NCBI GenBank assembly: GCA_963797095.1
Contig: CAWCNY010000003.1
Location: 384,001-448,000 of the forward strand
DNA from: an uncultured Chloroflexia bacterium
GTDB taxonomy: Bacteria; Chloroflexota; Chloroflexia; QHBQ01; JADMIH01
Length of the DNA stretch: 64,000 nt
Direction: 5' to 3'
Below are positions 42,161-45,172 of this stretch, piece by piece (within the stretch, counting starts at the first letter, position 1; each line of letters starts with the position of its first letter). The position numbers and the translations under genes are program-made. Under the pieces are notes generated by a model, which was not told where the DNA came from, did not search any database, and saw only the letters and a list, made by a program, of their open reading frames with translations.

Positions 42161-44272
42161 TCATACTGCACCTCCATTGGCTGTTTGCGTGTAGAGTTTC
42201 TCGTGTCCGCGTTTGCGTTGCCATTTTGCCGGTAGGCTAGCCTCCGGCAGGTAGTAGAGCCACTCACCTTTGTCACTGCCTCGTTTGTCACTGCCTCGTT
42301 CGGCCCCCAACAATCCCCACCGCCGCCAGCACTTCACCGTGTCTGCGCATACATCCAGGCGCCCCGCTAGCTCCGCCTCGGTCAGTAACCCCCGTTCCCG
42401 TAACCGTTCGTAATGATCCTTCAATTGGTGGCTCCGCCGTAGCTTGCCGATCAGTGCTCCATGGAACCGTTTGCCGTCTCGCGAGTGCCAACCCCTAGCA
42501 TTTAGCTCAGACGCTACCTGCCCGTCCGTGTGATCCTCCAGCAAACGGTCGATCTCCTCTACCGTCCCTCGCTCGGTTGGTCGCATCTCCACTGCTGATT
42601 TAGGCTTGGTGATTTGCACTGTTGTCGTCCTCCCGCCTCGGAAGCGCACCTGCGCCACGATCTGCTCTCCTTTGAGTAACGTCACATCGCTAATCATCAA
42701 GCGCATCATCCGCTTTCGCTCCCGGTCCGGCGTGCGCTCATCATACCACAGCCGAGGCACGTCACGAGCCAGCCCCAGCACCGCCTCCCGTTGAGCCGTA
42801 CTTGGGATGTGCGCTGCCTGACGTTGTTGCTCGGCTTCCTCTTGTGCCTTGGCAAGCAGTCGTAGCTTGCTGTTCCACTCGGCTTCCAGCACGTCTGCTA
42901 CCAATCGGTTTTCCGGGTCCACCCGCAGGTACCGCCGCTGCGCCAACTCGGCCTCGTATCGTGCCCGCTCTACCTGCTGACGGCGCAGCCTATCAGCCTC
43001 TTCTGCCCTTGCCACTACCTCAGCTTGCACAGCCAGCGCCACCTCCAGCGCCTCGGGTGTAATTGCCGCCACCAGCAACTCCCCTATCGCCACATCAACT
43101 ACTCCGCCTGGTACTACCTGGCAAGCCGTCCGTCCCTGCTGGATCGTCCTGCTCTGGCAGACGTAGTCTGGCACCAACCGCCCTCTCCGCTGGTGGTAAC
43201 GCAGTGTCATTTGTTCTCCGCATCGTCCGCAGATTACCAGCCCTTGCAGTAATGCTGGACCTTCCCGCGCAAGACAACCAACTCGCTCGCTGGTATGCCC
43301 CTTGGTATGCGCTCGGGCGTTCTCGCTTAGCTGGCGTTGGTTACGCTCATACTCCTCCAGGCTAATGTAACCCTCATGTGCCTGCGGGTACAGCACCATC
43401 CACTGCTCACGAGGCAATATTCGTACGCGTACCCGCCCCTCGACCAGGGACGTACGGGTGCGACCGAACACAAACACCCCAGCATAGCGTGGGTTGTGCA
43501 ACAGGTGCAGCGCCGTGGAGTGCAGCAATGGCCCCCAGTACACCTCGCCGCGGTGAGGACCAGTGCGCACATGATGGGGGAAGTTCAGCCCCGCTTCGCG
43601 GAAGCTGCGCACCGTGCCGCTCGCCGAATCGGTGCGACGAAAGGTCTCAAACAAGAGCTGTACTGCCTGCTGCACCTGCTGATCCGGGTCGCGGATCACC
43701 TGTTCGTCCTCGCGGTAAGCAAAGCCAATTGGCAGCGGCAATTTCAGTGCCCCGCGCCGCGCTTTGTTAAGGATGCCACCCCGCAGCCGTGCCCGCAACA
43801 CATGCAGTTCGGCTTCACTCATGGCACCCTTCAGCCCGAGCAATAGCCTGTCGTTGAAGGCAGAGGGATCGTAGACGCCGTCCTCGTCCAGGATAAGGGT
43901 GTCGGTCAGAGCGCAAATCTCCAGCAAGCGGTGCCAGTCCGAGTTGTTGCGCGCCAGCCGTGAAACCTCCAACCCCAGCACGATGCCGACATGGCCCAAG
44001 CCGACTTCGGCGACAAGGGTCTGGAAACCGGCCCGGTCAGCAGCAGAAGCACCCGATTGACCCTGGTCGCCATCGATGACTACGATGCGCTCCAGTGGCC
44101 AGCCGAGAGCGACCGCCCGCTCACGCAAGGCGTATTGGCGTTTGGTGCTCTCGCTGTTCTCCAGCACCTGCCGAAGGGAACTCTGTCTGATGTACAGGTA
44201 GGCGGTGCGCTGCAGGTGCTGAGCGGTAACCTTGTCGTGGTCCGCGTGGTTCATCTGGTTCATCTGGTTCAT
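42161..44272 (-). CDS. Large serine recombinase (resolvase, recombinase, Zn-ribbon and C-terminal HTH domains)
   Basis: YIRQSS catalytic Ser, D.GQSG, EVSRLARN, NPRYAG, LLQGLVICGRCG. Confidence 0.95.
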   Translation of the reverse strand: MNQMNQMNHADHDKVTAQHLQRTAYLYIRQSSLRQVLENSESTKRQYALRERAVALGWPLERIVVIDGDQGQSGASAADRAGFQTLVAEVGLGHVGIVLGLEVSRLARNNSDWHRLLEICALTDTLILDEDGVYDPSAFNDRLLLGLKGAMSEAELHVLRARLRGGILNKARRGALKLPLPIGFAYREDEQVIRDPDQQVQQAVQLLFETFRRTDSASGTVRSFREAGLNFPHHVRTGPHRGEVYWGPLLHSTALHLLHNPRYAGVFVFGRTRTSLVEGRVRVRILPREQWMVLYPQAHEGYISLEEYERNQRQLSENARAHTKGHTSERVGCLAREGPALLQGLVICGRCGEQMTLRYHQRRGRLVPDYVCQSRTIQQGRTACQVVPGGVVDVAIGELLVAAITPEALEVALAVQAEVVARAEEADRLRRQQVERARYEAELAQRRYLRVDPENRLVADVLEAEWNSKLRLLAKAQEEAEQQRQAAHIPSTAQREAVLGLARDVPRLWYDERTPDRERKRMMRLMISDVTLLKGEQIVAQVRFRGGRTTTVQITKPKSAVEMRPTERGTVEEIDRLLEDHTDGQVASELNARGWHSRDGKRFHGALIGKLRRSHQLKDHYERLRERGLLTEAELAGRLDVCADTVKCWRRWGLLGAERGSDKRGSDKGEWLYYLPEASLPAKWQRKRGHEKLYTQTANGGAV

Positions 44273-44714
44273 CGTGCGACCTCCCGCTGTGCGTGTTGTG
44301 CATGTTGTGCATGTTGTGCGTGTTCGACCATAGTGTGGCCAATACGGTGATGAAGGTGCGAGCGTGCTCAGAGCTGGCTATGGTGGGTGTGGTGGGTGTG
44401 GTGGGTGTGGTGGGTGTGGTGGGTGTGGTGGGTGTGGTGGGGTTTGGCCCATTAGGCCCAAGGTCGGCCGGGGGTTGCTGCCGGGCTGCAAATGGCGGGT
44501 CCGCCCTGGACTGCAACCAGGCAGCTATGCCCCGCCTTAGCACCAAGGCCATTCCTACCGGGGCTCTGCTCGGGCGTGGCATAGCCAGAGCCCAATTGCG
44601 TAGCACCTCGTAGTCCGAAGTTGCCAATGAAGTTGCCGATGAAGTTGCCGATGAAGTTGCTGACGACGCCAGGTTGGGCCTCGTCAGCGCGGCGGGGCCC
44701 GTCAGGCTTTTTTT
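44269..44714 (-). CDS. Small accessory ORF (YEVLR..GMALVLRRGIAAW) in the -1 frame of the HTH gene, with a probable 2-nt frameshift near 44335
   Basis: Open from the A7 run at 44708-14; deleting one CA ends it at a TGA overlapping the recombinase ATG. Confidence 0.6.
44659..44714 (-). other. Predicted -1 programmed frameshift signal (A-AAA-AAA plus H-type pseudoknot)
   Basis: 7-nt spacer; S1 GGGCC/GGCCC; S2 GCTGACGA/TCGTCAGC. Confidence 0.7.
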
Positions 44715-45172
44715 CCGTGCCTGGCCAGAGCACGCTCGACGCTGCGCGGGTGCACCAGCAGGCCAAAACGTAGTTCGAGCAGTTCGACCAGGTCGGCTGT
44801 CCGCAGGCGTGGCTGCTGCTCCAGTTGTTCGAGCAGGAAACCGACGACCTTGGGAGTGAGCTTGTGAGCGGAGCGGGGCCCTGGTCGAGCGGGCAACAGT
44901 CCTGAGAGGCCGCCAGTTTTCCAGGCAGCCTGGGCAGCGTAGAATGAGGGACGTGAGAAGCCGAAGGCGGCTGCGGTGGAACTGACAGGTTGGCCTTCGA
45001 CCAGTACCCGGCGCAGCATCTCGTACTTGACTTGCAGCAGATCGCGGGGGTCGAAGAAAGGGTCGCCCTGGGTGAAGGCAGGATCGAGTACAGCCTCGGG
45101 ATGGGGATTGAGGGTTCGGGTGGTGTGCAGAGCAGCGACCTTGGGGTCGAGATCGGGCAAGTGCAACTCCAA
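44702..45172 (-). CDS. Helix-turn-helix protein of the recombinase element
   Basis: FFDPRDLLQVKYEMLR, AAAFGFSRPSFY, GPR.AHKL, VHPRSVERAL. Confidence 0.85.
   Translation of the reverse strand: MELHLPDLDPKVAALHTTRTLNPHPEAVLDPAFTQGDPFFDPRDLLQVKYEMLRRVLVEGQPVSSTAAAFGFSRPSFYAAQAAWKTGGLSGLLPARPGPRSAHKLTPKVVGFLLEQLEQQPRLRTADLVELLELRFGLLVHPRSVERALARHGKKA

Follow-up and report, generated by a model that had tools for sequence, protein, structure and literature searches.

The 64,000-nucleotide stretch analyzed here (the window; positions 384,001 to 448,000 of contig CAWCNY010000003.1, from an uncultured Chloroflexia bacterium) carries on its minus strand a 3547-nt mobile element. Its four consecutive reading frames encode a DUF5372 protein, a helix-turn-helix (HTH) protein (orfA), a helical domain that we call the middle domain, and a large serine recombinase. 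We think it probable that a fraction of ribosomes slip at a run of adenines at the end of orfA, and that the element thereby makes both the HTH protein alone and a longer fusion of the HTH protein to the middle domain. An earlier note on this DNA had predicted a −1 frameshift with these two products, and comparison with related loci supports the predicted pair well, through the frame relation, the slippery runs, the missing start codons, and the occurrence of in-frame fusions.

In the mechanism we propose, some ribosomes would slip back one base at A_AAA_AAA in the end of orfA, helped by the orfA stop codon 3 nt downstream and probably by a GC-rich stem 7 nt downstream. Shifted ribosomes would then translate a variable linker in the −1 frame and, after it, a conserved four-helix domain. 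The two resulting products, the HTH protein alone and the HTH protein with the helical domain, would carry the same DNA-binding head. As to function, we can offer guesses: the middle domain may bind the recombinase, and the fusion could recruit or regulate the enzyme at the element ends, with the HTH protein alone acting as its competitor. The parts of the element that this scheme involves are as follows.

42151..45697, minus strand: whole mobile element, with bounds set by comparison with undisrupted copies of the host DDE gene elsewhere in the genome
44702..45172, minus strand: orfA (HTH protein), 156 aa, TTG start; Pfam HTH_32/28/29/23
44708..44714, minus strand: A7 slippery run, 0-frame A_AAA_AAA, 3 nt before the orfA stop
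44335..44708, minus strand: middle-domain frame (−1 relative to orfA), up to a frame break; hidden Markov model (HMM) of the family domain, E 9.8e-12
42161..44272, minus strand: large serine recombinase, 703 aa; Pfam Resolvase, Recombinase, and Zn_ribbon_recom; Shine–Dalgarno (SD) sequence GGGAGG 7 nt upstream

Slippery site and frame relation

Read directly on the minus strand, orfA ends in GGA AAA AAA GCC TGA, as the earlier note had it, with the stop at 44704-44702; [GG]A AAA AAA is a canonical in-phase X_XXY_YYZ heptamer. The −1 frame is open from far upstream of this site to 44121 (...KKSLTGPAAL...DYEVLRNWALAM...GMALVLRRGIAAW). Within it the middle frame starts nowhere in particular and reads DYEVLR...GMALVLRRGIAAW. 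The only ATG, GTG, or TTG ahead of its YE motif is TTG 44627, which has no SD-like sequence, and this bears out the claim that the frame runs open into the YEVLR open reading frame (ORF) with no convincing ribosome binding site. A second frame in −1 phase that lacks its own initiation signal is the arrangement of cassettes of the IS3/IS1 type.

The comparison set came from a one-genome-per-species scan that gave 582 confirmed stretches, from which 80 loci were kept. Across 78 loci, the middle-domain frame lies at −1 relative to the HTH frame in 41, as it does in the window besides, at +1 in 35, and in frame 0 in 2; L011, on a short contig with no recombinase, is also −1. Homologs from many phyla keep the 0/−1 layout with an in-phase A-rich site, as the prediction of a frameshift would have it. 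At 43 distinct −1-class junctions, the slippery motif is A7–A9 in 27, A6G in 1, A5–6G3+ in 11, A4G in 3, and missing in 1, that is, an A/G slippery run marks the HTH 3′ end in 42 of the 43. The in-phase X_XXY_YYZ heptamer occurs in 28 of the 36 junctions listed, and a 0-frame stop follows the run within 3–6 nt in 24 of 41. These genomes are GC-rich, AAA accounts for just 213 of the 754 Lys codons in the rest of these genes (a 72% bias to AAG), and only 2 other A7+/T7+ runs are found in 227,865 nt. Close to the window, A7 is kept in L091, which is 83% identical over 3.6 kb, the A-run site is conserved in L088–L090, and A7 is unchanged in contigs of runs X1 and X3.

The pattern of substitutions also points to translation in the −1 frame. 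Between the window and L091, synonymous and nonsynonymous changes number 17 and 22 in that frame versus 8 and 33 or 5 and 33 in the other two (synonymous in 17 of 39 changed codons versus 8 of 41 and 5 of 38). The linker stretch that precedes any start codon gives 5 and 6 versus 2 and 10 or 3 and 9, although these are small numbers drawn from repeat units that are not independent. The same junction is bridged naturally in four protein clusters, P0121 (16 members), P0124, P0126, and P0134, in which the HTH protein and the domain are fused in frame; the fusions in P0121, P0124, and P0126, which belong to one small clade, have no KK/A-run. Other apparent fusions were set aside: P0186 and P0248 are really −1-frame ORFs over-extended through the HTH gene, and in P0131, P0132, P0155, and P0140, the middle region is read in the wrong frame.

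What the shifted ribosomes would add is, judging by its conservation, a real protein domain. It is helical and about 90 residues long, and an HMM built from the −1-frame peptides finds it in every locus. Its alignment (n=52) has invariant Y, E, R, G, W, and L, arranged in the blocks YE.LR...G.A.L.R.G.AAW and V.VLA.MAL. A profile search of 1.84 billion representatives gave 3196 clusters (50% identity) at E<=1e-3, and no Pfam or NCBIfam family matched the domain. AlphaFold predicts four helices (predicted local distance difference test, pLDDT, 74; predicted template modeling score, pTM, 0.33), for which there was no Foldseek/PDB match at E<=0.001 and the best VIA-align Z was 3.9.

It could instead be that no recoding takes place, that the middle domain is re-initiated at a codon overlapping the orfA stop or at TTG 44627, and that the A run is just Lys-Lys. 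Several observations lean this way or otherwise speak against a ribosomal shift. First, an ATG, GTG, or TTG overlaps the orfA stop in 21 of 42 distinct −1-class junctions. Second, most database entries list the domain as a stand-alone protein: among the best 150 of the 3196 clusters, nearly all have it called alone, at 76–125 aa. Third, natural fusions are rare, with only the four clusters above found. Fourth, the lone −1-class junction with no slippery motif, in L076 (4940-5000), has a normal SD and start, GAGGAGGAG followed by an ATG that overlaps the HTH stop, with only four residues before the YE motif; in this element, the middle domain is evidently a protein of its own. Finally, in Escherichia coli constructs, A_AAA_AAA was less shift-prone than A_AAA_AAG, according to a recoding review (PMC5009743).

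Given the stop-overlapping starts and the stand-alone gene calls, coupled re-initiation may make the domain alone in part of the family. As an account of the −1 class as a whole, though, we find re-initiation unlikely. The orfA stop stands in CTGA in the window, L091, L011, and L088 and in TTAG in L089 and L090. From 45 nt before the stop to the YE motif, 11 of 38 distinct −1-class loci have no ATG, GTG, or TTG at all, and a start with an SD-like sequence occurs in only 4 of the 38. Moreover, the +1 class, in which that codon lies in the wrong frame, has NTGA with A or G just as often (∼20 of 30), and the frequency of NTGA is therefore no sign of coupling. Re-initiation also leaves unexplained why AAA AAA with a preceding A should persist against the bias to AAG, and why the run is lost in complementary fashion in L076 and the natural fusions.

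The loci in which the frame relation is +1 (within the range L008–L084, from Actinomycetota and Dormibacterota, and L094, on a Rhodococcus opacus plasmid) encode the same middle domain. Their 31 distinct junctions have NNN AAA AGY (A4G) near the HTH end in 24 cases and GAA AGC GAG G in 6. Nine of 30 have no start codon, and in 15 of 30, the recombinase is in frame with the middle domain and begins 9 nt past its stop. A shift to +1 like that of Ty1/Ty3 would fit this class, but about half of the junctions have a GTG directly behind AAAA.

Candidate downstream RNA structure and possible slippage by RNA polymerase

A 7-nt spacer, GCCTGAC (44707-44701), separates the A run of the window from a potential structure whose parts, all on the minus strand and read directly, are as follows.

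44700-44696: S1 5′ arm, GGGCC
44695-44689: loop ccgccgc (L1, 7 nt)
44688-44681: S2 5′ arm, GCTGACGA
44680-44676: S1 3′ arm, GGCCC
44675-44667: loop aacctggcg (L3, 9 nt)
44666-44659: S2 3′ arm, TCGTCAGC
44659..44700: candidate stimulatory RNA structure, S1 plus S2; alternatively, the S2 hairpin extended by inner GCC/GGC

These arms have the topology of an H-type pseudoknot (S1 5 bp, L1 7 nt, S2 8 bp, L2 0, L3 9 nt), and both they and the 7-nt spacing are as the earlier note described. In dinucleotide shuffles of the 68 nt after the run, a 5-bp stem beginning 5–9 nt in together with a nested 8-bp stem arose in 3 of 5000, and any 8-bp stem in 129 of 5000. The ViennaRNA minimum free energy of the same 68 nt is −29.4 kcal/mol (z −2.73), and none of 200 shuffles was as stable. 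In L091, the A7, the spacer, and both stems are identical, with substitutions in the loops only, and in L011, a different 8-bp hairpin begins with the same GGGCCCC, some 8 nt past its A_AAA_AAG.

The case for this structure as a stimulator of frameshifting has several points against it. The minimum free energy fold is not the pseudoknot but an extended S2 hairpin that takes up part of the S1 3′ arm; by a rough hand estimate, the two are about equally stable, and a further 6-bp CUGACG/CGUCAG pairing is possible. The arms stand as described, but a preference for the pseudoknot over the competing hairpin is unsupported, and we regard the H-type fold as a possibility. The earlier note had proposed covariation of S1 and S2 and conservation of the A run as a check: the run is conserved, as described above, and the stems show no covariation with the three sequences available (term +0.23). 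In contigs of runs X1 and X3, the first two S2 pairs (44688 and 44687) are altered, with no compensating change among the differences listed (34 more lie outside that listing). Across the family, there is no excess of downstream folding (mean z −0.22 for 34 −1-class loci over 75 nt versus −0.36 for controls), and only the window (−2.4), L091 (−2.8), L089, and L050 stand out. Rfam gave no match at E<=1 within 44200-45300.

The lack of a family-wide structure bears on a further alternative, in which RNA polymerase adds one A at the run and the same fusion is translated from some of the mRNAs. The longer runs suit such transcriptional slippage too, and to that extent count against a ribosomal mechanism: A8 or A9 is present in 22 of the 43 distinct junctions, and runs of this length reportedly slip, according to Baranov and colleagues' work on insertion sequences (IS) and Thermus dnaX. 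The phase of the heptamer does not help to discriminate, as A8 holds an in-phase heptamer in any phase. Against this, the runs in the clade of the window do not exceed A7 or A6G, short for a polymerase to slip on efficiently, and the clade has a stable structure at the spacing typical of programmed ribosomal frameshifting. In addition, 15 junctions have A4–6G motifs, which suit slippage of tRNA-Lys and not reiterative transcription. On this evidence, we rate transcriptional slippage as quite unlikely to be the source of the fusion and favor slippage by the ribosome.

The element and the state of this copy

The element interrupts an rve_3 DDE transposase gene, the parts of which remain at 41514-42150 and 45698-45967 on the plus strand and match HTH_32 and rve_3 in Pfam. 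Intact copies of this gene elsewhere in the genome (L096 and L097) give the target as ...GGGCGAA/TGCT.... AA borders the element at both ends, which fits the 2-bp crossover of a serine recombinase. L091 lies next to the same DDE C-terminal fragment, beside its DUF5372 end, and the recombinase may thus target this site in related IS copies. The element is present once in its own genome. The interrupted DDE gene has a separate frame break at ∼42085-42100 (plus strand), reading ...DSKYGEKFTV* in one frame and RVAVNSGIKVLRTPYRAPRAKE in another; the host IS, from its reading frames, was or became a pseudogene.

By its domains, the enzyme is a large serine recombinase. PF00239, PF07508, and PF13408 are all above cut-off, the catalytic domain occupies residues 24–175 of 703 with the others C-terminal to it, and R23, Q24, and S25 are invariant in an alignment of 40 relatives (IRQSS in the window protein). 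In orfA, the first ∼105 residues resemble the N-terminal DNA-binding region of IS630/IS481 transposases, with NCBIfam matches below cut-off. The middle frame begins with a linker containing 12-nt repeats, followed by the YE.LR and G..AAW helices. Further features of this copy, all on the minus strand, are the following.

45402..45695: DUF5372 reading frame; Pfam PF17342, E 9.7e-17, 61.2 bits versus a cut-off of 25
45227..45255: promoter-like site, TTGACT-17-CATAAT with TG extension; consensus match only, 10/12
44617-44660: repeat array, 12 nt x3.7 (tandem repeat analysis, as for the three arrays below)
44381-44441: repeat array, 9 nt x6.8
44288-44324: repeat array, 9 nt x4.1
44247-44273: repeat array, 9 nt x3.0
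44333..44334: two extra bases, of ambiguous placement in 44332-44336; alignment with L091, and the X2 contig
44269..44331: displaced 3′ end of the middle frame, last helix; translation MVEHAQ...REVAR*

The earlier note had suspected that a 2-nt duplication near 44335 breaks the coupling to the recombinase in this copy, and a frame break at this place is real by comparison with two relatives: relative to L091, the window has two extra bases within 44332-44336, and a metagenome contig of run X2 (∼95% identical) does not have the 2 bases at 44333. As a result of the insertion, the −1 frame of the window overruns the recombinase start by 150 nt, to 44121, and the last helix of the middle domain is split, with ...FITVLAT in one frame and MVEHAQ...REVAR* in the other. 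The stop of the displaced end (TGA, 44271-44269) overlaps the recombinase ATG (44272-44270). The recombinase stands in frame 0 relative to the HTH gene in the window and in +1 in most relatives, again consistent with an insertion. In L091, the −1 frame is intact to ...VLATMVEHAQHAQQEVAR and ends in a stop that overlaps the ATG of the recombinase; L091 shows decay of its own, with a broken HTH gene and a truncated recombinase. No sequencing run matched the window at >=99% over 44264-44386, and the two bases may be a true mutation or an assembly error. As the sequence stands, the fusion predicted from this copy is defective, lacking the last helix.

Once repaired, the accessory ORF would end in an ATGA overlap with the recombinase start, as the earlier note had seen, and this is the family norm: in 30 of 34 distinct −1-class loci, the stop of the middle frame and the start of the recombinase share bases in an ATGA, GTGA, or TTGA. 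That note had gone on to suggest that the frameshift rate could meter the output of recombinase. Nearly all of the loci with the overlap, however, have a strong SD-like sequence ∼7 nt upstream (AGGAGG or GGAGG; GGGAGG in the window), which makes independent initiation of the recombinase likely and weakens the idea of metering, which we regard as speculation.

The DUF5372 frame, which lies upstream of the HTH gene (as does a DUF5372-like frame in 76 of the 78 loci with sufficient upstream DNA), has a different peculiarity. In the integrated state, it has no ATG, GTG, or TTG start and is a stop-to-stop ORF only. Joining the two ends of the element, as excision to a circle would, brings an ATG that overlaps the recombinase stop into the DUF5372 frame and adds ∼8 residues, and the N-terminus so formed equals in length that of L037, where the start is inside the element. 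Integration may thus switch DUF5372 off, as judged from this one copy.

The tandem repeats form four in-frame arrays within 44247-44660, in linkers and in the first codons of the recombinase, and lengthen both the linker regions and the recombinase N-terminus. Their copy number varies, in L091 as well as in contigs of X1 (shorter by 12 nt at 44617) and of X2 (shorter by 9 nt at 44294). The promoter-like site sits between DUF5372 and the HTH gene, ∼55 nt ahead of the HTH start. Just outside the element, at 46071-46831 on the plus strand, are two adjacent small ORFs of 132 and 119 aa, separated by 3 nt from the end of one to the start of the next, which may be a toxin–antitoxin pair of the DUF433/DUF5615 type.

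The condition of this copy invites a simpler interpretation, that the A-run frame relation is a mutational accident or homopolymer length variation in a decaying element, with nothing programmed about it. The element is a single copy inside a dead IS, and the 2-base frame break, the repeat expansions, and the start-less DUF5372 are all of a kind with decay, as are the A-runs with another frame relation in L080, L086, and L053. But the −1 relation occurs in 41 loci from many phyla whose genes are otherwise intact, it recurs in identical multi-copy elements (L037/L038, L047/49/51, and L072/73/75), and A7, A8, and A9 versions all keep it through different flanking codons. At the level of the family, these comparisons largely refute decay, and we hold it to be a very improbable explanation of the −1 frame relation.

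The family, known systems, and implications

Together, the related loci form a family of four-gene, ∼3.5-kb elements resembling insertion sequences. The kept loci come from Acidobacteriota, Chloroflexota, Actinomycetota, Myxococcota, Gemmatimonadota, and others, and a recombinase follows the HTH gene at a distance of no more than ∼250–300 nt in 78 of the 80. Several genomes carry the element two or three times in nearly the same sequence (99.6% identity between L037 and L038 over exactly 3397 nt), which indicates a compact multi-copy mobile element. The element is found as well on plasmids of rhizobia and Burkholderia and in Rhodococcus and Mycobacterium; among plasmid records, 135 contain it, chiefly from Sinorhizobium, Rhizobium, Burkholderia, and Rhodococcus. 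Of 8000 candidates scored against the HTH protein, 7883 are relatives at E<=1e-3, with lengths of 150–190 aa in nearly every case. A search for extra relatives added 4 loci (1 close) from a metagenome scan, 1 from a viral scan, and one 68% match from the window's own genome and 60 relatives.

Annotation of these elements makes no mention of a frameshift. RefSeq labels the four genes DUF5372 family protein, helix-turn-helix domain-containing protein, hypothetical protein, and recombinase family protein. In L093 (Aromatoleum aromaticum EbN1 plasmid 2, 3489-4225), where the HTH gene ends in A9 and the middle domain is at −1, RefSeq calls just a 55-aa hypothetical protein that starts past the conserved YE helix, which illustrates the mis-calling of this family in cultured strains. 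Literature searches, judged mostly from result listings, found no description of DUF5372–HTH–middle domain–recombinase elements, none of the papers searched contains the term DUF5372, and the words “serine recombinase,” “resolvase,” and “integrase” do not occur in the first 300,000 characters of the recoding review (PMC5009743). Thus, −1 recoding, although known in other insertion sequences, is apparently undescribed for this widespread family.

The closest analogies we considered each hold in part. First, in the IS3 family, with OrfA–OrfAB of IS911, and in IS1, with InsA–InsAB′, there are likewise consecutive 0 and −1 frames, an A-rich heptamer in a short overlap that is soon followed by the orfA stop, possibly a downstream hairpin or pseudoknot, and a pair of products with a common HTH head. 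Unlike in those systems, the part added here is a 90-residue helical domain of no known family instead of a DDE catalytic domain, a separate gene with an SD of its own encodes the enzyme, a large serine recombinase, and there are no inverted repeats or DDE-type target duplications, only a 2-bp core. A fusion that has no catalytic domain, beside a separate serine recombinase, does not place the element among the IS3/IS1 trans-frame transposases. The match to IS3-type programmed frameshifting drawn in the earlier note therefore holds for the logic of recoding and fails for the enzyme; by analogy, the element would work in the manner of IS3/IS1 recoding, while belonging to neither family.

Second, dnaX, which yields tau and gamma, resembles the site in its Lys-Lys heptamer (A_AAA_AAG, with a hairpin), downstream stem, early stop in one frame, fixed ratio of long to short product, and common N-terminus. 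The shifted frame of dnaX, unlike the one here, ends at once and gives the shorter product, whereas here the shifted product is the longer (in part, PMC5009743).

Third, TnpX of Tn4451, TndX of Tn5397, and XisF (the last an NCBIfam match below cut-off) share with our recombinase the Resolvase, Recombinase, and zinc-ribbon domains and belong to small mobile units with small accessory proteins alongside; the compact DUF5372–HTH–middle domain–recombinase layout and the recoding site set the present element apart. Finally, the IS607 family also comprises insertion-sequence-like elements moved by a serine recombinase, but its enzyme is small and has the HTH before the catalytic domain, whereas here the enzyme is 703 aa long with the catalytic domain first and the HTH in a separate gene. 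With the catalytic domain at residues 24–175 and the other domains C-terminal to it, membership in IS607 was rejected.

One may put these observations together into a broader and more tentative picture, which we offer as conceivable while doubting that all of it will hold. An undescribed, very widespread family of IS-like elements would recode in both directions, with A-rich heptamers as the −1 sites of most phyla and AAA_AGY as the +1 site of Actinomycetota, in both cases attaching a recombinase-controlling domain to the HTH protein; in the clade of the window, integration would part DUF5372 from its start codon, and the protein could be made only from the excised circle; and the two features together would constitute a switch of recombination direction.

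That DDE insertion sequences use programmed frameshifting to balance regulator against transposase is textbook knowledge. In the elements described here, the same device would operate in a large-serine-recombinase element, building an accessory protein and not the enzyme. Control of the recombinase by the fusion, if borne out, would put right thousands of small ORFs that are now mis-called and would add a new kind of accessory or directionality factor to the large serine recombinases, enzymes in wide use as tools of genome engineering.

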